Notes: generated by a model not told the origin, from the sequence alone. A stretch of DNA of 63,964 bases, filler included, from Rhabdomonas costata (GCA_019059605.1; 28 parts of 28 records of this genome joined end to end with filler, not necessarily neighbours in it); one strand, 5' to 3'; counted from the whole stretch's first letter, positions 51,156 through 63,942 are shown. A program made the numbers and translations.

Positions 51156-53021
51156 GCAGCCCCTTTTTCTGCTTGCATTGTGCTCCGTGAGAGCGGCTTC
51201 ATCCAATTGGCGACGGTGTGGGGATTTTATCCCGATTCCTTGCTGAGGATTGGATCGAGCAGCGGTCCGAATCCCTCGGTCTTGGTTTCCGGATTTTCGG
51301 GCGGAGCAGCCATCCTGGTAACCGCAAGTACGACACCAAGCGCCAAGTCACGCCAACACACGCCACTGGCCCAAACACCATGCCTCGGTCCAACCGGTAA
51401 GCCTCAGTCCCAAACTTCGATCCGCTCACAACACCGCGATCCGTAGCACCAGGGTCCCACACACTTTCGGGGGTTGCAGCAAGAAGGCAAGAAGGATTGC
51501 CAACTTACTAAAACGAAAGCAAAAGCAATGCACAACAGTGCGACAACCTGCAAGGAAGATATACGGTTCGGCTTTGGTTTTGCAAGCAACCGTACACGGA
51601 AGCGAGGGGGGACACTACACCGCACCGCGCCACACTCCACCACACCACACCACCACACCACTCCACCATACCCCCATGCCCACATCACGCTACACTTCAA
51701 CACATGCGCTGGGCTGAATACCACCAATTCACACATGTAAAATTGAAATCGAATATGCGAAAACAGGAAGTCCATATGTTCGCGGGAGGCTATTTGGAAG
51801 TGCAAATGTCGACGCAGACAGGGCAGGAGAGACCGCAATGCCCTCGATGCGAAACTGAAACGCAGCAAGCAATAACGCAAAGGAGACCTGTACACCACGC
51901 AAAGAACAGGTGAAGCCGGAACACACACATACACACGATGGCGCGAGAGTTTCATTCCATCCCAGTTGGGCACACACACAGCCTCCATTCCTCGCACCGC
52001 ACTGGCTCTGACAAGACAAGCTTTGGCCGAACCCGATACTTAAGACGTGACTAACACCCCACAGGTACACGAGGCCAGAACCTGCACATTCTGCACCCGA
52101 GACAATACGCCTTTTTGCCCGAGTCTCAGATCGGAATCCCCATCATTCCCATGCGAGGAAAATGAGTCCTACATAGTTCCACTATCGAAATTGAGACCTT
52201 CGGTAAGAATGAAGCCATTCCCTGTTACGAACCTACCATAAAGACCAAAAGACAACTGCGGGAAAACCAAAGCAAGAAAACAGAAAATACGCAGTCAGAA
52301 AACAGAAAATGAGACCACCATGAACGAAGCCTTTGGAATCAATAATCGCCATGATGCGCACCCAAGACCGAGGTAAACCTTTTTCACCCTTTGCCTTTTG
52401 TTTTTCCCGTTTTACTCCTTTCAACCACTCTACGGGGCTTGGCTTTTTCTCCCACAGGCCGTGGGAGACGCCCAAAGACCTGCAGAAGGTACAGTGGTAG
52501 NNNNNNNNNNNNNNNNNNNNNNNNNNNNNNNNNNNNNNNNNNNNTTAATTAATTAANNNNNNNNNNNNNNNNNNNNNNNNNNNNNNNNNNNNNNNNNNNN
52601 GGGTTTTTGGGTTTTTGAAAAAACGTTGACGCGAAAGGAGATTTGTCCTCCCAGGTGAAGTGACGCGCGGGCAATACGCAGCGTTACGTGCTGTGTGAGT
52701 TGGCAATCATCTTGGCCAACAAGAAATTAGCTGGGGGACATGACTTTCAACTCATCCCATTTTAATGCCGCCCTCCTTAACAGTGATAACCACGGTCTCT
52801 TGATCACAACTATCCGTCCCCCCCCCCCCGCGCCAGGGCAGAGCTGCATAACGCTGAGTGACAGAAGACCGGCCGGTAGTTCCCAGTTTGTGTCTGTAGC
52901 ACTAACGTCGCGGCAGAAACGTTGTCACGGGCGGGCAGCCGATTACACAGTGCCGGGGAAAAGCAGCTGTTACAGGTAACCCAGCAGAATATGAACACCT
53001 GCGCATTTGAGCGAAAAATAC

Positions 53022-53462
53022 CTGGATGCTAAACTTCCCCTCGAGAGCGGTGATCTGCCGAAGATAGCTCGCGTTCGGGTTGATGAATGGACGGCGCTCC
53101 CGCACCTGCTGCACCGCCTCATGCATGCTCAGCCCGCTGGCCTTCATGAGATAGGCTATCACAATCGCCGCCGAACGGCTCACCCCGCTGCTGCAGTGCA
53201 CGAACACCACCCCGCCATGCGAGAGAGCGTCCTGCATGAACCGCAGCGGGCCCTCGAAGTCGATCTGCTCCGTCATATTGTCCCTCAGGTTGCAGTTGTA
53301 GTACGCAAACCCCCCGGGGAAGAAGTTGGGCTGCTCCGCTGCGGCGTTCACAACATGGGTCACCCGGAGGCGCCGCAGCAGGTCACGGGACTTCGCCCCG
53401 TCGCGGTTGCCCAGGTACAGCCGGCCAGGCAGAATCTGGGAGACCTCCATGGACTTGTCCAT
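53022..53462 (-). CDS. Dual-specificity protein phosphatase (atypical DUSP/MKP-like)
   Basis: MDKSMEVSQILPGRLYLGN...VTHVVNAA...LRDN...VFVHCSSGVSRSAAIVIAYLM...INPNASYLRQI contains the full HCxxGxSRS active site and AYLM motif. Probable donor CAG|GTATTT at 53021; the unspliced frame stops at 52902. Confidence 0.95.
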
Positions 53463-54092
53463 TTTGGGGGAGTTGGGGCAAGAAGTGATAAGGAGAAGGC
53501 AGGAAAAGAGAGGAGAGGAGGGCGGGATACAAGGAGCGGCGGGCCACCGAAGTCGGACAGATATCAAACAAAGAGAGAGAGAGAGCGGTGCTAAAAAGTG
53601 AGAAGACGTTCACAACGGGACCTCGCAAAACTGTTCACAGACAAATCAACACCAACTCTGAACTGGGGGCTTCCGTACCAATAGAGGCCAATAGGGGAAT
53701 CGAACCTCCGAGAGAACCCACCACCACACAAACAGCCAGGGTTCGCCACGCCTTCGCATGCCTGTTGGTACAGTGCACCGCTACACCCTTAATGGAAAAA
53801 AGCTACATAACGCCTCTGAGTCACAGCCTCATATAGGGCCGCTGCAGGGCCAATACAGTGGGGGTCTCTCCAATACCCCAATCTAGCCCAACACCCGCGC
53901 CATTGTACTGCCCACCCAAAACCTGGGCCTTGAACGGTTCCGGGTATAGAGGTTCCCTGGTATATTGTGGTCCACCCGGCCCATACGCTGGGTGCAAGAG
54001 GAAGCTGCAAATGCTTGCATTTCCGCATCTCCGATTCTATTGATTCGATATCCAGAGATGTAACGCTGGGAAACAAAAACGGCGCAGGCATC

Positions 54093-55048: not shown

Positions 55049-56658
55049 TCACATTATTTTGTGCCGCATGTCCTGCAGACGCTTGCAGACATCCTCGGGC
55101 TGGCGGTCCAGCTCCTCCGCGATCTGCTTTTGCTCTGATGAGATTCCAAAATAAAAACAGAGTGGTGTGAGTTTGTGAACGGATAGGAGGGAGTGTTCCG
55201 AGGTGCTGGTCCTCCCCCTCCTTGTGCTTGTGCTCTCCTTGTCGAGCGCTTCTGTGCAAACACAACTCGTAGCATAAAGACGCGTCCCTCGGGCACGATT
55301 GTTTTTGTTTCGGGGGAGGGGTGTGTGCTAAAAGCGTAAAAGGGTTATGTCCTTTCAATGTCTCATATAAAAAACGTCATCCACAGCACAGTTTGTCCGA
55401 TCCCTAATTATTCAGGGGATGCTTCTAGGGGGCCGCCTCGACCGCAGATATCGTCCCTAAAGGAAATTTGTTACACTACAATGTGCAAAAGCTCTGACGG
55501 TGTTGACAACTTAACAAAACGTTAAAAAAACTGCTCTATTGCCCAACTCCAATTATCAATGAGCGTTAGAAGGATGTGACTTGAACTTCGGGCAAAGCCT
55601 ACACCCCAAAGCCCACAACTACCACTGCCGAAGCCGGACGCAGAACCGGAGAGAACAGAAAGAAAGCAGCGCGCACTGGAAAGTGGCAGAGCGTTGAACA
55701 GCTCACAGAAGTCGCCGTCAACCACGTCCTGTGAAAGCAATAAAAGAAATAAGACAGAAAGATCAACTGTAATGTGAAATGTGGAAACATGAAGAGTGAA
55801 GGTCGGGCTTGAGCAGAAACGAAGCATCCCTGCAAACCATCAAAACGAAGCGTCCCTGAAACCTCCCCTGGCAGTAGCGTTGCCGGCTCGCAATCTCTTA
55901 GGCTCGCACCCTCTCATCCTGAGGATTTTTTTTTTCATATTTCCATTACTTCGCCGGGAGCGAAGCTCTTAAGTCGACGGAAGGGTCGGCGCGGCTGATG
56001 TAGAGACAGAGGCACAGAAAGGGATCAAGGCGAGGATTGGAATACCGTGACTGGCAATTTCGAGTATGAGGGGAGGGAATGGGCACAAAAACCTTGCAGG
56101 GGAAGTAGCTGCAGCGGTACGCCAAGTGGTCCCGCCCACACAGCGGGGGGTTCTCCTGGCGCATGTGCATCTCCAGCAGCTGGAAGAAGTCGGAGTCATC
56201 TCGGGTTTGCAGGGGGATAAGACATCCCACGGAGCCCATGATCGTGGTGTACAGCAGGACCTGCACCGGTACCAAACGGGAACCGTGGCGGCAACAGCAG
56301 GCGAGCCTCTTCGGATGCATCCAGGATTGGGTTCAGCGCAAGTGGTGAAAGTCTTAAGCGACATGCCTGACGAAGAAGTGACAGAGCACCAGACAGTACT
56401 GCATGCACTTTTCTTACCGCTCACAGCCGCGCGAGAAACATAACAAGAAATATTGCAAGGCAAATTGTTAAAGTGCTCGTTCAACAAACTGAAAGTATTG
56501 CCGGATTCATCGCTGGTGGAAAGATGGATCGCCATGATTGTAGAAGACGCAAACCCCCCAGAGCCGTCCAGAATCACCTCCATCCCTCCTGGGGTCAGCT
56601 CTGTCTTCTGCAGGCTGGTCACCATATCCCCAACGTGGAACCGCACAATCTCGTCCGC
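55049..56658 (-). CDS. SF3B3: Splicing factor 3B subunit 3 (SAP130/Rse1), last four exons (5'-partial)
   Basis: Exons 56578-56658, 56093-56260, 55677-55728 and 55049-55134 (all GT-AG, in frame) give FHVGDMVTSLQKTELTPGGME|VLLYTTIMGSVG...FFQLLEMHMRQENPPLCGRDHLAYRCSYFPCK|DVVDGDFCELFNALPLS|KQKQIAEELDRQPEDVCKRLQDMR, the conserved SF3B3 C-terminus. Confidence 0.97.
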
Positions 56659-59013
56659 CTGTGTACAAATAAAATGAGGGAAATAGAGTTGTACTTCAAG
56701 CAGCCCAGCCCCCTCTCCTGGATCACGACGCCAGAAAAAGCACCTCCCTGCGGCTTTTCCTTGGTTGACAGCTCAACCAAGGAAAAGAGAAAGCCCCCTA
56801 AGTAGTCAGGGTAGCAAGCCATCCGTAGTGAAAAGCCACAGTAAAGCATAATTCGGTTTTCTGCTTTATTCAGGGAAAGCCAAGGGAAAAAACTAAATTA
56901 TCAAAAAAAAAAGGGGGGGGGGACACAAAATGGTCCCTTAACACAGGACGCACACACATTCAAATGATCACCGAATTAGACTTCATTGCACTGCCGGGCC
57001 ACGACCCGCTCGTACCGTTGCGGCGCGAAGGAGCAAAGCGTTCTTTTCGGAAAACGAAAACAGGAAAGTAAGAAGCACGATGGCGGTGGAAAGAACACGC
57101 CACCCCCCACCNNNNNNNNNNNNNNNNNNNNNNNNNNNNNNNNNNNNNNNNNNNNTTAATTAATTAANNNNNNNNNNNNNNNNNNNNNNNNNNNNNNNNN
57201 NNNNNNNNNNNTGTTGGGGTTCGGTTATCGCGATCCACCTCGAGCCACCCCCACCCGAAGGCTCGAACCCCGTACGTGGGTAGGTTCGTAGAGCTTCGAG
57301 TCCCCCAGCTTGCGAGGCTCCCCTACTTTCCTTCTTCATTCCCGTTCACTGTACTTTAATTCTCTGCGGACCCCCACTGTCGAGTGTCAAAATTTGAAGA
57401 AAAATCAGAAAAACATCAATGTAGACCTGCCAGGGGTAAAACGACCCGCGGCAGCGGGTCCCTCTCTGCAAAGGCTGTCTGGCTTCCGCAACAGCCGCAA
57501 GCGTGTCCAGCGGAAGCGTTCTTTAGGTTTTTGAAGCAAAGCCCCTTTAAAAACGTTTTCAAAAAACCAACAAATCGAAACAACAATTCCAATGTGCTCC
57601 ACCCAAGTTTAAAAACACAAAGGCAGCTGAAAGATTGGTCAGACCCCACCACCACCATCTTGCAGGACTTTTGGTTACCTCGAAAAAGAGCATGAAAAAT
57701 ACACATTTCAAATTTATCTCTCATATGCGGTATGTTAAGAACAATACATGGGAGTCTGACAGCAGGCAAGCCCGGCGAACACACGGCGAAAAAACGAGCC
57801 TACCGCCACCAGTCTCACCACCACAAAACACGAAACGACTCACATGTCCCCCGTCCCTTTCGAATAACCACCCCATGTTATCGCAGGAAGAGGCACAGAG
57901 GCACGTGAGTTGAAAGTTCATAGATGCGAACAATTACGTTTTGGTGCTCGCGTAGGGGACCGTTCACTGAAAATTGTCAAGGCAGCTTCATATGCAGCTA
58001 CATACGGAGCTAATACCTAAATATACCTTGCAAGTTATTGAGAAACAACGCAAGAGAACCTGAGTCCGATATTCTGTGAACGTCGGCAATGGCGAATTCG
58101 GAGCCCCGGCCGTCGGGTCTTCGCGAAATTCTGAGCAAGATCCACCACTGCATGCCCCCACTTTCGGATTCTCCTCCAAGCTCCTTGTTCTCTCCAAAGC
58201 AGACAAATGCCACAGTGATGACAAACAGAACCCGAAACATTTTGTGAGCTTGACTTCCCACAGATGGGTGGCTGTGTAGAAAAGCCACAGCACGCGAAAA
58301 CACCACTGGTCGTTAACGCTGCTTGCCCGTTTGGAGGTCAAGCGGGTTTCTGACCAAACGATCCAACCTCATGAGGGGCAACCATGTACATTTGAAAAAA
58401 TTGCAAGTTTTTTTTTTTTGCGAAGAATATGTATAGAAGGCATGCAAAAACGTTTTGTAAAAAACCGCCGCACCGGTTGCAATACAAGACCCCGCAAAAA
58501 AAAGAAAATGCAAATACCCCATCATCCGAACGAAATTTTGGCAAAGGCACAGTTCAAGCCCATCCACTATTGCATACGGGCCACGGCAGGAAGGCAGGAA
58601 GGAGGCAGGTTATGTGGCGGGGCGGAGGGGGCCGCGGGCAACATCCATATGAAATCGGTCATTTTCCGACGTGAAAATGGGTCCCCTTGGAACCAGCAGA
58701 CAGGAAATGGGATGTGGAAGAACTGGGCGGATATTATAGAAGTTATGATGTGGTCCAGACCTGAAGCCAGTATGAAACGCCAATGTTTGATGAAATGCGT
58801 AGGTCTTAACCTGAACGGCGAAGCGTTACATTACCAGGATAATACCATCCCTCAATCCAAGATGAAAACGGGGCAACGGCTCACTGAAACCAGCAAAGAA
58901 GAACGTGCAAAAACATGCACGATAAAAGTAAATGCAAAAAGCGTTGCAGCGTTTGTGAAATCCCTGGCGAGTACGGGTTTACATTCACAAAACAATTGAA
59001 GAGGAAGACTCGG

Positions 59014-59221
59014 TCACTCAAACGGAACGATTTTGTCCACAATAGCAGCGCGACACAATGGACAGGCCTGCAGCTTGTCCGAGCATCCTCGGCAAGCGGT
59101 TTTGTGCCGGCAGGGCATGAAAATAACCTCCTTTGTTCTGCTTTGGCAAATGTCACACAGTGCACGCTCCGAACGGAGCCTTTCGACAGTGCACAACAGT
59201 TCTTTCAGCGACTCGTAAAAC
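59014..59221 (-). CDS. C3HC4 RING-finger (IAP/MGRN1-type) protein, terminal exon
   Basis: After TTTTTAG: ...CDICQSRTKEVIFMPCRHKTACRGCSDKLQACPLCRAAI...* with all eight Zn ligands present. Confidence 0.9.
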
Positions 59222-59277
59222 CTAAAAAGCGCAATGAAAATAACAGGAATGAAGTGCCGCATCCCACTCAATGCCAA

Positions 59278-59395
59278 AACAAAGGAGGTTATTTTCATGC
59301 CCTGCCGACACAATGGACAGGCCTGCAGCTTGTCCGAGCATCCTCGGCAAGCGGTTTTGTGCCGGCAGGGCATGAAAATAACCTCCTTTGTTCTG
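59278..59395. repeat. Exact 90-bp copy plus 30-bp inverted copy of the RING exon at the contig end
   Basis: 59306-59395 is identical to 59051-59140; 59278-59307 is the reverse complement of 59363-59392. Confidence 0.92.
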
Positions 59396-59544
59396 NNNNN
59401 NNNNNNNNNNNNNNNNNNNNNNNNNNNNNNNNNNNNNNNTTAATTAATTAANNNNNNNNNNNNNNNNNNNNNNNNNNNNNNNNNNNNNNNNNNNNGGATG
59501 CGGCTCAAGGTGAAGAGCAACAGCAGGAGCAGCAAGGTGAACAG

Positions 59545-61455
59545 ATGTCGGAGACGTCAGTACCCCCTGCAGAGGAGAACAGGTCAGGTTGCGAAGTGCA
59601 GATGGGGTCAAGTTCGTCACCCGAAATAGGAGTTTCAGCTCAAGTTAGCGTGTGGGGACAGAGGGAAGACAGAGAAGAAGAGGCAGACCCTGAGACTCGC
59701 AGAGGTAGGAAGCTGGCTGAGGAGTCAGCGAAGCGAGCCAGACCAGATTCGGCGGCCGTCTCAGTGCAACCGTCGAAGAGAGTGGAGAGATTGGAGATAC
59801 CGCGATATTCTTTTCGTATGCCAGGGGTGGAGCTGATGAGGCCAGCGGCAGAAAGGAACATGGTAGTCTTACCAGAAGAAGATTACCATGACGGGTTGAA
59901 GGGGAGAGCGATGGATTTCTCGCGAGCAGAAGGACTGGAAAAAGAGAAGCGCAAGCTGCGTATGAAGTTGAGAGTAGTGCGGGAGTTCTACAAGGGGTAT
60001 GCAGCAAGAATCAACTTTAAAGAACTGGAAGGGAATGACCCCGCCACGTTCTTCCCATTTCCGTACCCCGTAGTTGTGCCCACAGAAGAGGAGGCGCGGA
60101 ACCACGTTCGTATCGCAAATCAGCCAACAGTGTTGGCATCAGAAGAGAGAGAGGTGATGATTGATGTTGATGCAAATGGAGATGACGAGACAGAGGGGAC
60201 GGCCACGTCGTATAGGAGTGTGTTGGATGAAGATTATCAGTCAGTGCCAAGGTCGAGACACGATAAGAGGCGTGAGAAACAGGAGGAGGACATGGTGAGG
60301 TGGTTTTGTAAATATCCTGTGTTGGACAACCCCGCAAAGATTATGGTCGTAGATATGGAGTACTTTGAATATTCTTCGGAAGTGGTCGAGTCGCACCCCC
60401 CGCATGATCCGGATACGGTTTATACAACATCAGACGGAGTGCATTACACCAGCAGCACGTTGGAGCATTTGTACAACCATTGGTGGGAGGGAGGAGAGTT
60501 TGAGACATACTTTCGGGATAACACGCGTTTGTTCCAGGATAGGCATTTTTTTGACTTCGAGACTTTCGTATCGCTTGCCGAATTTCACATGAGGGGTCGT
60601 AAGCCGAGATGGACGGTGAAGCTTCCCCGAGAGTTGTCGTGGGCTTTTCGTACGGTGGACGGGGAAAAGATCTTTTGTGCAACGTACGACGTTATCCCTT
60701 TGGTTCCAGCTAGTGATTTCTTTGACAGGAAGAACAATTTTTGCAATGAAGTTGATCGGGCGTGTTGGGCTTTCTGCGAGAAGTTCGTACACCACTTGAA
60801 GTATAACCCGGGGAGGTCAGGTTTGACATTCGTAAAGGCCGTCATCCGACTAGAGAGGGCGGTACTTGCATTCAAGCCGGAAAAGATAATGGTGAAAGGA
60901 ACGCAGAATGAGGCAGAACTGTTGAGTAAGTTTTTTGAGATGGCAGGTGGAACTATAGGGATCCCGCCGATCGTAGCGTGTCCGAGAGTTAGGGTGAAGC
61001 AACCAGGGGCATTGTCGCCAGAAGTTCAAACAAAGGTGTTGGCACCATTGGCGTTCGCAGTGTCGAAGTTGTGTCCGAGGCACAGGTCGCAGCATGTGAG
61101 GAATTTGAAGCCGAATGAGCCGGAAAAGGTGGACCATTGTAGTTTGGTGGAATGTTTGTATTATTCTATTTATGCGTTGCCATCGGCAAGGGTTGGGGAG
61201 TTTGCAAACGGGAAATACCCGAGGATCGTACGGTTCCTGTTTCAAGAGGATCAAGATTGGGAACAGAGGTTTAAGTTGCTGCCAGGTGAGGATATTTTGT
61301 GGGACCAGAAGGGGGATCCACATGACCAGGTATGGAGTCAGCGACCGGCGCAGGTGAAGGCCCGAGAGGAAATGAAGCGTAAGGAGGAAGAAAAGCAGGC
61401 TAAGGCAAGCGTTTCAGGAGTGGCAAGTGCGAGTTCTAGTGGGGCAACGAAGTGA
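59545..61455 (+). CDS. Intronless 636-aa protein (frame open to contig start) with a DEDD-superfamily nuclease fold and a Maelstrom/arenavirus-NP-type zinc site
   Basis: Longest ORF in the window. Motifs in order: IMVVDMEYF (D-x-E, 60352-60360), LPRELS, FVHHLKY, IMVKGTQNE, CPRV, LCPRH (61072-61083), HCSLVEC (61135-61155). The N-terminal ~250 aa are charged and low-complexity. The frame is also open 59497-59544. The ORF itself is near-certain; the family call is by motif only. Confidence 0.75.
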   Translation: MSETSVPPAEENRSGCEVQMGSSSSPEIGVSAQVSVWGQREDREEEADPETRRGRKLAEESAKRARPDSAAVSVQPSKRVERLEIPRYSFRMPGVELMRPAAERNMVVLPEEDYHDGLKGRAMDFSRAEGLEKEKRKLRMKLRVVREFYKGYAARINFKELEGNDPATFFPFPYPVVVPTEEEARNHVRIANQPTVLASEEREVMIDVDANGDDETEGTATSYRSVLDEDYQSVPRSRHDKRREKQEEDMVRWFCKYPVLDNPAKIMVVDMEYFEYSSEVVESHPPHDPDTVYTTSDGVHYTSSTLEHLYNHWWEGGEFETYFRDNTRLFQDRHFFDFETFVSLAEFHMRGRKPRWTVKLPRELSWAFRTVDGEKIFCATYDVIPLVPASDFFDRKNNFCNEVDRACWAFCEKFVHHLKYNPGRSGLTFVKAVIRLERAVLAFKPEKIMVKGTQNEAELLSKFFEMAGGTIGIPPIVACPRVRVKQPGALSPEVQTKVLAPLAFAVSKLCPRHRSQHVRNLKPNEPEKVDHCSLVECLYYSIYALPSARVGEFANGKYPRIVRFLFQEDQDWEQRFKLLPGEDILWDQKGDPHDQVWSQRPAQVKAREEMKRKEEEKQAKASVSGVASASSSGATK

Positions 61456-62395
61456 GGCGAGTGGGCAGTGGAGTGGTTGGGATTCGTATCGCAGGAGGCA
61501 TGAGGATGTTGGATCAGTTGTGTGCGAAAAGTGGAAGGTGTCGTAATTGTAACTTTTGCATTGCCTTGTGTTGCTGTTGCTGTACTGAGCTTTCCAGTTC
61601 AGGTGAGCTCTCGTCCGAAGCAAGGCAAGGAACGTTCGCAGAGAAGATCAGAGTAGAGAGCAGAGAGGATTTCTCTCTGTNNNNNNNNNNNNNNNNNNNN
61701 NNNNNNNNNNNNNNNNNNNNNNNNTTAATTAATTAANNNNNNNNNNNNNNNNNNNNNNNNNNNNNNNNNNNNNNNNNNNNGAAGGAGTTTCAGTGGAGAT
61801 ACAATCTCCCGGTTGACGCTGACCCCTTTTTGTGCCTGTTGGACGCTGTTCGGAATGGTCATTTTCCTTTTTGAATCTTCTTCCTGTGGTGGGTCCAATA
61901 ATCCAGTTATGCCTTTTCTTTATTTGATCTGGATCTTTTTTCACTCCTACCGTGCCTTAAAAGTGGTTGCTTTCAGTAATTCCTTCCGGTTTTCCATTGA
62001 ACTTCCTTGGGCCGGGATTCCAAAGGTATGCCATTTAAATGCCTTCTATCCTACAGGGAAATTTTAGGGCACATATTCACTGCGTGCGTGAGTGCTAATA
62101 TACAGCCAATTCTGGAACCCGGTTGGGGTGAATTCCAGAGGCAAAGGCTGACAAGTCCGATACGCCCGGGGAGAAAGCTGGCGTGCTGCTGCATAGGGCA
62201 GCAGCTCAACACGAAATCACATAGCGCAGCGAGTGGGGCAGAAAAAGTACCCCGACTGGGTGTGCAAAGACGTTTGAGTGCTGCAGTGCCGATCTCGCGA
62301 GATAAACCAAAAAACAGTTAACGGGGTGTCTGTACATCAGTCCAATAGTTGTCCTATTTCCCAAGTCCAAAGTCACGCGGAGTTTAGCGGCGAGC

Positions 62396-63942
62396 TCAGT
62401 CGTGAGGGGAGGAAGTAGAGCTGGAGGAGCCTACGGTGGATATGGCGTGGGCAACGAGGAAGGAGATGAGGTAAGATAGGGATGCTGCTGCGAAGCCGCT
62501 GAGCAGGATGCTGGTGGCGGACCGCAAGCGGGGAACTTGGATGAGCTTGCCCTTGAGGTAACCCAGCACAAACAGGCAGGCCCCAGTCAGCCCGCAGCTA
62601 AGCAGCAGGGCAGCCGAAGGGGCTGCGACGGGAGACAAGCAGAAGCGTGTGTATGGCAGAGCGCATCTTAGGAACGATAAGAGCATAGCGGCCATCTTTT
62701 CCGGAAATTTTGTCCCCTCAGGAGCCTCCTGTATTTCAGGAGATGGCTATTTTCCAGGACTTCGGCTTCGTAGTGACTGTTATTATAACGATGTGGCCCG
62801 CAAAGTCCAAACAACGTTTTGCTAGTAATATAATCCAAAAGTCGTCAATATCAGCAATGAAATACGGTACGCAAAACAAGACCAAGGGACGTGAACCTTT
62901 AAATCCGTAGTCACCTTCACAAAGTAATCCTTCAGAAGGGAAGAAGGTCCAGAAGAAAATCTGACTGAAAACACAGGGGGCCAGGAGGAGGAGATGGAAG
63001 GTCCACAGAGACCTAAGTCCGCGAGGTAGGCCAGCAGGGGCACCGATCCGAAGGTGATGAAGGAGACGAACATGATCACGCCCTGCTTCAGGGGCGCCCA
63101 CTCGTCCTCCCCTGCATCGGGCTGGATCCCTTCAAAGGAATCACGCACCATGATACCATCACGCACCATCACGCACCAAACACTTCAAAAGGGTCGTCAA
63201 CTCGACTTACATCACCCAGAGACCACTTTCCAGATCTCAGTTTTTCATGTGCTTGACTTGCCCTTGCCGCGTCGCACTCCTTCTGAAGTAATCTGGAGGC
63301 ACAGGCATCGAACCTTGCCTTTAGCAGAAACAAAAAGGAAAAAGACGTGCCTCACCGTTCAGCGACAAAGAACCAATAAGTGACGCGTTTGCAGCATACC
63401 ACAAATGTGCGAAACACAGTATTACGTCCTTATGCTCTGCGTTTGCGATGTTCCCAACAGACTGCCTGCCACGTGAGAGTCGAACAGATGAACAGATGAA
63501 CAGTCGAACAGCTGTTGAAGCCAAAGCCAAAGCTGCAAACACACGCCGGGTGCCCATTAACAATTTACCGCTAGTACTAAAATGACCTTACATGACGTGG
63601 CTGGGGCGGGTGGAGAGTCATTTGCACACCAAGCTCATCGATCATCATCAGATCCACGAAAACCTTCGGGTACTAACGAGAGAACATAAGGACAGGAAGG
63701 CAGCAAAGGGTCACTCGGCGGAGCAACAACTTAGGAGAAGGAACAACACAACCCAGAATTCAAGACTTGCATGAACAGCGGAGCCTTCAGGTTTCAGAGG
63801 TCTCAGTACTCTGATTCTGACCAAGCTCCCCAGTTTTCCATTGATTTGCGGCAAACCTTCATCATCACGTCCATCATGGCCGAGGCGTCCTGCTCCGAGA
63901 CCCCTTTGTTGATGTACAGGTCTACCATCTCCTGCTTCTCCC
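62396..63942 (-). CDS. VIT1: VIT1/CCC1-family vacuolar Fe2+/Mn2+ transporter, last four exons (5'-partial)
   Basis: Exons 63857-63942, 63630-63672, 63013-63129 and 62396-62622 (GT-AG, in frame) give GEKQEMVDLYINKGVSEQDA...MK|YPKVFVDLMMIDELG|IQPD...PLKQGVIMFVSFITFGSVPLLAY...LFVLGYLKG. Confidence 0.93.

Follow-up and report, generated by a model that had tools for sequence, protein, structure and literature searches.

In a 63,964-nucleotide (nt) stretch of DNA assembled under the name Rhabdomonas costata (GCA_019059605.1), referred to below as the window, we identified an open reading frame (ORF) of 636 amino acids (aa) that starts with an ATG and runs on the + strand from 59545 to 61455, with its TGA at 61453-61455. 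Its product is probably, if by no wide measure, a divergent DEDDh 3'-5' exonuclease of the Maelstrom (MAEL)/arenavirus nucleoprotein (NP) type, most likely encoded by a nuclear gene of a euglenid-like host. The initial annotation of this stretch had presented the same frame as long, uninterrupted and purine-rich. It is indeed open from the first in-frame codon of its contig to the stop codon, has a purine content of 0.597 and is the longest frame in the window, the runner-up among 43 stop-to-stop frames of at least 170 aa being 277 aa long. The contig starts 48 nt before the first ATG and ends 225 nt past the stop; its edge may truncate the N-terminus, and the true start may lie upstream. The protein would begin with about 240 charged residues in which no domain is recognised, and the predicted nuclease domain that comes next takes up about 330 aa. 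A Pfam search with the N-terminal 253 aa gave no match, and the protein exhibits no HMG box.

All the motifs that the initial annotation had named (D-x-E, PRE, HHL, VKG...E, C-x2-H and HC-x3-EC) are present in the protein, and they are mostly conserved in its relatives. A HMMER scan of 1.84 billion representatives (cut-off E-value ≤0.001) returned 32 matches, 11 of them at E-value ≤1e-10 and none at 1e-30. They are short metagenome proteins (50-354 aa) with 27-62% identity to the window protein. Jointly they span residues 194-573 of the query, and P0030 alone spans residues 32-129 (40% identity). The relatives cluster into at least eight groups at ≥60% identity, plus singletons. Each of the 29 that were checked is from an environmental assembly (ENA or JGI/IMG), where its contig measures 519-4334 nt, and none is informatively named; the window protein itself is absent from the library. 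A word-indexed protein search found nothing with the window protein and P0011 alone with the family alignment (A1, described below). The ESM Atlas gave no usable match for the whole protein or for the domain, NCBIfam and PHROGs gave nothing below an E-value of 0.3, and two scans of metagenome contigs found no relatives. The family is uncatalogued so far, being seen only in one euglenid-like assembly and in environmental fragments.

Residue conservation was counted in A1, an alignment of 31 sequences (the window domain and 30 fragments), over the sequences spanning each column or having a residue there. At the D-x-E motif, D270 is kept in 12 and E272 in 9 of the 14 sequences spanning the column; among the five that lack this catalytic Glu, P0004, P0010 and P0025 still carry the Asp. 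The Glu of PRE (E363) is kept in 14 of the 15 sequences with a residue at this position, D404 of the NEVD motif in 15 of 18 and H416 in 12 of 14. Similar levels are observed for K451 (17/20), G452 (14/20) and E456 (16/20), for H513 (7/8) and H517 (8/9), and for the residues of the last motif, H531 (8/9), C532 (9/10) and E536 (8/8). The conserved family signature comprises D-x-E, PRE, NEVD, H-x-L, KG-x3-E, H513 and HC-x3-E. The insertion that had been noted between D-x-E and the presumed zinc-binding Glu proves to be family-wide: the stretch from D-x-E to PRE is long in all members yet variable, with 91 residues here (E272 to E363) and about 62-68 in P0011 and P0038. The pattern CxxH-x(8-25)-HCxxx[DE], picked post hoc, occurs in 54 of 200,000 shuffles of the protein.

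Two of the fragments end in tails that read as frame-shifted family sequence. In P0002, 12 of 13 shifted positions match P0020 (shuffled maximum 9), and in P0014, 26 of 38 match P0016 (shuffled maximum 20); both may be either pseudogenes or assembly errors in environmental contigs. An intron was considered as the cause of fragments ending at one place and was rejected: most fragments end with short contigs, and the two tails fit frame shifts better. One further match, P0032 (354 aa, metagenome), is regarded as spurious and is probably unrelated to the nuclease family. It is built of roughly five units of about 57 aa in tandem, every one with DDHCS-x-N-x-C-x-EY; it matched the HC-x3-E region of the query (E-value = 3.4e-4) and exhibits a weak Pfam MIZ/SP-RING signal (E-value = 1.3e-8, no single stretch passing).

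The fold was predicted with AlphaFold for ORF residues 225-600 with alignment A1 (model 1; mean predicted local distance difference test score (pLDDT) 75.2, predicted template modelling score (pTM) 0.78) and for P0038, a 412-aa relative about 28% identical to the window protein (model 2; pLDDT 62.7, pTM 0.64). In model 1, D270 and E272 lie on strand beta1 and E363 on beta2, the next long strand; E456 starts the helix that follows the short strand KIMV (beta4), and H531, C532 and E536 are found at the last core helix. This modelled placement of the residues is the DEDDh layout, and the modelled core is of the RNase H-like alpha/beta type (beta1-beta2-beta3-alphaA-beta4-alphaB-beta5-alphaC). The two models agree on the DEDDh/RNase H-like fold that had been suspected from the motifs, and the prediction of a DEDDh (DnaQ-like) exonuclease fold is robust across both.

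The likeness to arenavirus NP that had been read from the motifs reappears in the structure comparisons, in which arenavirus NPs are the top matches of model 1. On re-alignment of Foldseek's top 1000 chains they occupy ranks 1-10, the best chain being that of Lassa (3mx2_B: Z 10.0, root-mean-square deviation 4.5, 168 aligned residues, model 38-345 against chain 381-558). If the stretch beginning at 38-381 is ungapped, D270 (residue 46 of the model) pairs with Lassa NP residue 389, which we take to be the first catalytic Asp. In a Foldseek-independent search of 48,161 chains, the NPs of lymphocytic choriomeningitis virus (LCMV; 4o6h_A, Z 9.2, 169 aligned) and Lassa (3r3l_A, Z 9.0) are at ranks 1-2, followed by DinG (8.7), MSH2 (8.6), a TREX1 homologue (8.4) and Pol III epsilon (8.2), DEDDh enzymes and further RNase H-like folds alternating in these places. 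The Maelstrom chains come at ranks 16, 18 and 45 (Z 7.8, 7.7 and 6.7; 167-173 aligned). With model 2, DEDDh enzymes score Z 9.1-8.0, LCMV NP (8.4) and Lassa NP (8.3) are at ranks 5 and 8, and Maelstrom is at ranks 12, 18 and 19 (Z 8.0, 7.9 and 7.9; 189-210 aligned). Among the matches at Z ≥8, identity is highest to NPs and the MSH2 connector domain for model 1 (14-15%) and to NPs for model 2 (14%); the longest aligned stretches are those with Maelstrom. In all of these rankings (1-10 and 1-2 for model 1, 5 and 8 for model 2) the margins between NP and other DEDD folds are less than about one Z unit. Foldseek itself gives no match to model 1 in the PDB at E-value ≤0.001, only a weak list with DinG, RNase T and RuvC, which arenavirus NPs enter at rank 4 and a Maelstrom complex at rank 27. 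Over both models the best Foldseek E-values are 3e-3 to 7e-3, and four structure searches are dominated by DEDDh enzymes. The BFVD matches of model 1 (E-values of 1e-3 to 7e-3 throughout) are DEDDh exonucleases of phages and giant viruses, and three of the top nine are arenavirus NPs. These modelled structures and their scores suggest a special closeness to arenavirus NP or Maelstrom and do not settle it.

The residues that may hold a zinc ion are E363, the pair C510-x2-H513, and C532 (in C532-x3-E536). In the published description of Bombyx MAEL, the zinc is held by E137 (on beta2), C290, H293 and C302, while D122 and N124 occupy the D-x-E position and R306 takes the place of the fourth acid (PMC4408791). 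The spacing from the beta2 Glu to the Cys is 147 residues in the window protein and 153 in Bombyx MAEL, and both exhibit C-x2-H and C-x3 before the fourth acid position; the sole large difference in spacing is that beta1 and beta2 lie some 78 residues further apart in the window protein. The initial annotation had proposed an E/C/H/C zinc site: its order and spacing match those of the published MAEL site (PMC4408791), but the candidate Cys C510 is kept in only 4 of 8 relatives. The other candidate Cys, C532, stands directly after the catalytic His, H531. The Exo II and fourth acids are both Glu (E456 and E536) instead of Asp, as had been remarked, and are conserved as such. Judged from the sequence, the catalytic set would be a D-E-E-E-h variant in which all five catalytic positions are kept; a choice of Asp or Glu at Exo II has been noted for the exonuclease (ExoN) of nidoviruses (PMC7968707). 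Both DEDD and Glu-Cys-His-Cys (ECHC) sets are described for Entamoeba EhMael and Lassa NP, which are active exoribonucleases (PMC4408791). The ECHC finger is common to Maelstrom and arenaviral ExoN, which have been placed as sister branches, and the portions of the same survey cited here report no zinc fingers inside cellular or DNA-phage DnaQ-like exonuclease domains (PMC7968707).

Several observations weigh against the identity proposed here, first as to kinship and then as to host. Pfam gives no family for the window protein at E-values up to 10, and none of the 31 sequences of A1 matches a Maelstrom or arenavirus Pfam family. Sequence and profile searches of the PDB, with the full domain and with a profile of its C-terminal half (A4), returned chance matches only (aminopeptidase, mS23, uS15 and NUP54), and no arenavirus NP chain at E-values up to 10. 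All Foldseek E-values are above 0.001 (both models, BFVD included). Foldseek puts RNase T first for model 2, with no NP or Maelstrom among the matches listed, and the structure scores are of middling height with many ties: Z 8.0-9.1 is also reached, with model 1, by MutS-connector domains and other DEDDh domains. These results, like the patchy conservation of C510, would suit an independent DEDDh lineage in which the Cys/His pattern is a coincidence or another metal site, with no specific kinship to Maelstrom, arenavirus NP or the trypanosomatid protein RIF4. The Z scores to NP, Maelstrom, DinG, RNase T, TREX-like and polymerase exonuclease domains, which lie within about 1-1.5 units, are also in keeping with it. 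We consider such a lineage unlikely, however. The Cys after the catalytic His, the beta2 Glu and a conserved His about 18-20 residues upstream reproduce ECHC, which among DEDD nucleases is described, in the parts of the two accounts cited here, only for MAEL and arenavirus NP (PMC4408791, PMC7968707). The maxima of identity and of aligned length given above also point away from it.

As to the host, the Pfam-confirmed host domains in the window lie on frames of 100-235 aa, each covering part of its domain only, and the contrast drawn in the initial annotation between the nuclease frame and the other exons holds. A frame of a dual-specificity phosphatase (52902-53609, - strand; PF00782, E-value = 1.5e-28) has as its best relatives three R. 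costata proteins of EukProt (71, 51 and 51% identity). An exon-sized frame of a eukaryotic RNA-dependent RNA polymerase (RdRP), the host enzyme to which the initial annotation had alluded, is found on another unlinked contig (22269-22670, - strand; PF05183, E-value = 2.8e-14, profile positions 358-426 of 582), with a GC content at third codon positions (GC3) of 0.76. Given these euglenid relatives of the phosphatase and the RdRP exon, the assembly is probably that of a euglenid or close relative with genes of the RNA interference (RNAi) type. Fragments of a WD40 protein (39753-40052, - strand, GC3 0.83), a CPSF-A/DDB1-type protein (55949-56332, - strand, 0.74) and a VIT-family transporter (62399-62746, - strand, 0.66) illustrate the short-exon, GC3-rich style of the host genes. 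Euglenid genomes are described as intron-rich, and that of R. costata as having about 52% GC (PMC8219788). The nuclease ORF departs from this style: its GC3 is 0.56, against 0.66-0.86 in five Pfam-confirmed host exons, and its frame is uninterrupted while the confirmed genes of the assembly are split into short exons. The host origin is doubtful also in that the euglenid label rests on one other, unlinked contig.

The uninterrupted 1.96-kb frame, its GC3 below that of all five confirmed host exons and its place on a small unplaced contig also fit the origin favoured by the initial annotation, namely a transposon or a virus of the host, either endogenous or episomal, with a nuclease that would destroy double-stranded RNA (dsRNA) or small RNAs and blunt RdRP-based silencing. 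The same can be said of the many groups of relatives, of the apparent frame shifts in P0002 and P0014, and of the loss of the D-x-E Glu in part of the family, a pattern also seen in decaying multicopy elements. Arenavirus NP is the top structural match of model 1, and bdelloid rotifer retrotransposons are reported to carry DEDD exonucleases, some with a Cys-His-Cys motif (PMC5408684). We nevertheless regard a mobile or viral origin as rather unlikely. The contig exhibits no reverse transcriptase, integrase, capsid, polymerase or terminal repeat on either strand, which is a weak test as the contig barely exceeds the ORF. In it we found neither terminal nor inverted repeats, the only repeats being three short direct matches (16-24 nt, two copies each), and no family match or second gene in the other frames or on the opposite strand. 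There is no similarity to, and no second copy among, the other 27 contigs of the window, and no relative turned up in five scans of IMG/VR viral contigs. Errors of assembly could account for the frame shifts, one of which sits at an inferred run of A. The intronless frame, low GC3, unplaced contig, diverged relatives, frame shifts and Glu loss each also fit a weakly expressed, fast-evolving host family seen through noisy environmental assemblies. The anti-silencing role that had been put forward is unsupported, and for the occurrence of similar proteins in Polintons we found no supporting paper; the records that name both Maelstrom-type proteins and Polintons concern, by title, piRNA or transposon topics.

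We hold it highly improbable that the contig belongs to some other organism of the sample, be it a contaminant eukaryote or a virus of one. The GC3 and the strand purine bias are unlike those of the confirmed host exons, the 29 relatives checked are all environmental with none from a named organism, and the protein is missing from the library scanned. The GC content of the contig (0.509), its CpG and TpA ratios and its k-mer profile are, however, within the spread of the other 27 contigs. The contig ranks 6th-7th of 28 in tri- and tetranucleotide distance from the rest, three contigs being far more deviant, and its TpA ratio is 0.56, against 0.46-0.95 in the others.

A divergent Maelstrom-type protein of the host, which the initial annotation had given as its alternative, fits the evidence better in view of RIF4, an RNAi factor of MAEL type in kinetoplastids (PMC3359990). 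Kinetoplastids and euglenids both belong to the Euglenozoa, and given the RIF4-like plan and spacing of the window protein, a host exonuclease of RNAi or RNA processing is the most economical reading. The enzyme would hydrolyse RNA from its 3' end by a two-metal-ion (Mg2+/Mn2+) mechanism, with D270 and E272 (beta1), E456 (helix after beta4) and E536 as the acids and H531 as the predicted general base. A structural zinc may be held by E363 (beta2), C510, H513 and C532, and the roughly 78-85 aa inserted between beta1 and beta2, a lineage-specific trait, may act as a lid or binding surface. By analogy with the protist MAEL-type enzymes EhMael and TbRIF4 (RIF4 of Trypanosoma brucei), it would degrade or trim RNA. 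A role inside the host RNAi pathway is our most concrete guess, again by analogy, and such a role in RNAi or RNA processing would be the opposite of that of a silencing suppressor.

Protist MAEL-type nucleases with both DEDDh and ECHC are the proposed ancestors of the inactive metazoan Maelstrom, a factor of the pathway of PIWI-interacting RNAs (piRNAs), and of the immune-evasive arenavirus exonuclease (PMC4408791, PMC7968707). Two such protist enzymes, EhMael and TbRIF4, have been studied so far, and a new family would widen this sparse sample. What is new here is a family invisible to Pfam and to PDB sequence searches, with Glu at two catalytic positions and a large insertion. Should a mobile element carry the gene, this would be one of the rare MAEL-type nucleases encoded by a parasite.

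The window (1-63964) is not one genomic stretch: it strings together 28 contigs, each 2183-2226 nt long, that run more or less from the longest to the shortest. The contigs are linked by 27 identical 100-nt spacers (N44 + TTAATTAATTAA + N44), with stops in every frame. Since the contigs are unlinked, neighbouring genes in the window are uninformative and readings of linkage across the pieces are invalid; the nuclease contig having no usable flanks, a flanking-gene reading from the window is meaningless. The features of this contig are listed in Table 1.

Table 1. Features of the nuclease contig and of its ORF, in window coordinates
Feature	Position	Strand	Remarks
Assembly spacer before the contig, N44 + TTAATTAATTAA + N44	59396..59495		one of 27 identical 100-nt spacers
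Unplaced contig carrying the nuclease gene, 2185 nt	59496..61680		GC 0.509; + strand G 0.329 / C 0.180
Open frame from first in-frame codon of the contig to TGA	59497..61455	+	first ATG at 59545
Charged N-terminal region, ORF residues 1-237, no recognised domain	59545..60255	+	residues 1-250: D+E 0.20, K+R 0.16
DEDDh-type exonuclease-like domain, ORF residues 238-569	60256..61251	+	confidently folded part of the model
Exo I motif VVDMEYF, residues 268-274 (D270, E272), on strand beta1	60346..60366	+	model and conservation
Aromatic/acidic insertion, residues 276-355, between beta1 and beta2	60370..60609	+	shorter in distant relatives
PRE motif, residues 361-363, on beta2; E363 candidate zinc-binding Glu	60625..60633	+	model and conservation
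Conserved helix NEVD...VHHL (D404, H416, L418; HHL 416-418)	60745..60798	+	alignment conservation
Exo II equivalent VKGTQNE, residues 450-456; E456 at start of helix after beta4	60892..60912	+	model and conservation
C510-P-R-H513, candidate zinc ligands	61072..61083	+	sequence and conservation
Exo III equivalent H531-C532-S-L-V-E536-C537	61135..61155	+	H predicted general base; C532 candidate zinc ligand; E536 fourth acid
C-terminal tail, Lys/Glu-rich end	61252..61452	+	low model confidence; model and composition
Post-stop stretch to contig end, 225 nt	61456..61680	+	no further ORF matching any family
Assembly spacer after the contig	61681..61780		one of 27 identical spacers

Other contigs of the window exhibit some features of their own. 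A C3HC4 RING-finger frame (59014-59373, - strand; PF13920, E-value = 9.5e-20, two stretches) lies on contig 57212-59395. Its second RING copy derives from an exact 90-nt direct repeat (59051-59140 / 59306-59395, the latter at the contig end); inverted matches are seen too, and the repeat is possibly an assembly artefact. Contig 43461-45645 is a compositional outlier (GC 0.395) with a 107-nt self-inverted match at its end, and reading it with the mitochondrial code gave no convincing gene. Another outlier, contig 41178-43360, is G+T-rich (G 0.328), with an observed/expected TpA ratio of 0.95. The two outliers may represent organellar DNA, repeats or foreign DNA. Scanning the window for Rfam families and for tRNAs gave nothing.

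Among known systems, the DEDDy exonucleases encoded by ORF3 of bdelloid long terminal repeat retrotransposons and Athena elements offer a mobile-element precedent, with DEED instead of DEDD and with Cys-His-Cys in some (PMC5408684). Unlike these enzymes, which are RNase D-like and stand beside gag and pol (PMC5408684), the window protein has His in its last motif, as in the DEDDh type, and no element genes are seen on its contig.

Metazoan Maelstrom (Drosophila 4YBG, Bombyx 5AF0 and the SIWI complex 9NHC) shares with the window protein the RNase H-like fold (Z 6.7-8.0, 167-210 aligned) and the pattern of a beta2 Glu, Cys-x2-His and Cys, which binds zinc in Maelstrom and is a candidate site here. 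In contrast to the window protein, metazoan Maelstrom no longer has the DEDD acids, shows no nuclease activity and has an HMG box in front (PMC4408791).

The C-terminal exonuclease of arenavirus NP (Lassa, LCMV, Mopeia and Tacaribe) is matched by model 1 over the whole ExoN domain (Z 9.2-10.0, 163-169 aligned), and NP has both DEDDh and ECHC (PMC4408791). Unlike arenavirus NP, to which its identity is 11-15%, the window protein has no recognised domain at the position of the NP core and no viral genome context on its contig, and its large insertion is absent from the ExoN domain of NP (about 200 aa). An arenavirus-like nucleoprotein, that is, an endogenous viral element, was considered and rejected: what precedes the nuclease is a charged stretch in which no domain is recognised, and relatives of the P0038 type (412 aa) consist of an acidic leader and the nuclease only. 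One might also see the protein as closer to arenavirus NP than metazoan Maelstrom is, a free-standing eukaryotic lineage of zinc-bearing DEDDh enzymes and a living representative of the cellular or mobile-element stock of the arenavirus domain, which in euglenids could ride an intronless, low-GC3, possibly multicopy element. We hold this to be decidedly unlikely.

The protist MAEL-domain protein EhMael of Entamoeba histolytica (EHI_192630), a Mg2+/Mn2+-dependent exoribonuclease, has the DEDD set and the ECHC zinc motif in the same order as the window protein (PMC4408791). Compared by published motifs, the window protein differs from EhMael in its lack of a match to the Pfam Maelstrom family (PF13017), in the Glu residues at acidic positions 3 and 4, in its insertion of about 78-85 aa and in its long charged N-terminus.

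We found no report of Maelstrom or RIF4 in euglenids, the records on RIF4 and euglenids being judged by title, and a literature search for the MAEL domain in kinetoplastids returned nothing. The sequence search gave no link to RIF4 either, no named protein being among the 32 matches. The MAEL survey by Zhang et al. (2008; PMC2628886) had already noted the DEDDh domain of RIF4. TbRIF4 (Tb927.10.8880) is a 490-aa protein of RNAi-proficient trypanosomatids with a C-terminal DEDDh domain (D294, E296, D392, H472 and D477). It is described as a 3'-5' exonuclease preferring dsRNA, needed for the conversion of duplex small interfering RNA (siRNA) to single strands and for Argonaute loading (PMC3359990). 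RIF4 differs from the window protein in having Asp at acidic positions 3 and 4, no large insertion between beta1 and beta2, and 490 aa against at least 636 here. TbRIF4 is euglenozoan, as the window protein probably is, and like it has a long N-terminal region with no known domain followed by a C-terminal DEDDh domain. By its published residue numbers, the distance from Exo II to the His is 80 residues, against 75 here, and His-x4-acid occurs in both; from D-x-E to Exo II the distance is 96 residues in TbRIF4 and 184 here, or about 100-106 once the insertion is removed. The window also holds, on an unlinked contig, the host RdRP exon. If the window protein is the euglenid counterpart of RIF4, it would provide a handle on the unwinding of siRNA duplexes in RNAi-proficient free-living euglenozoans.

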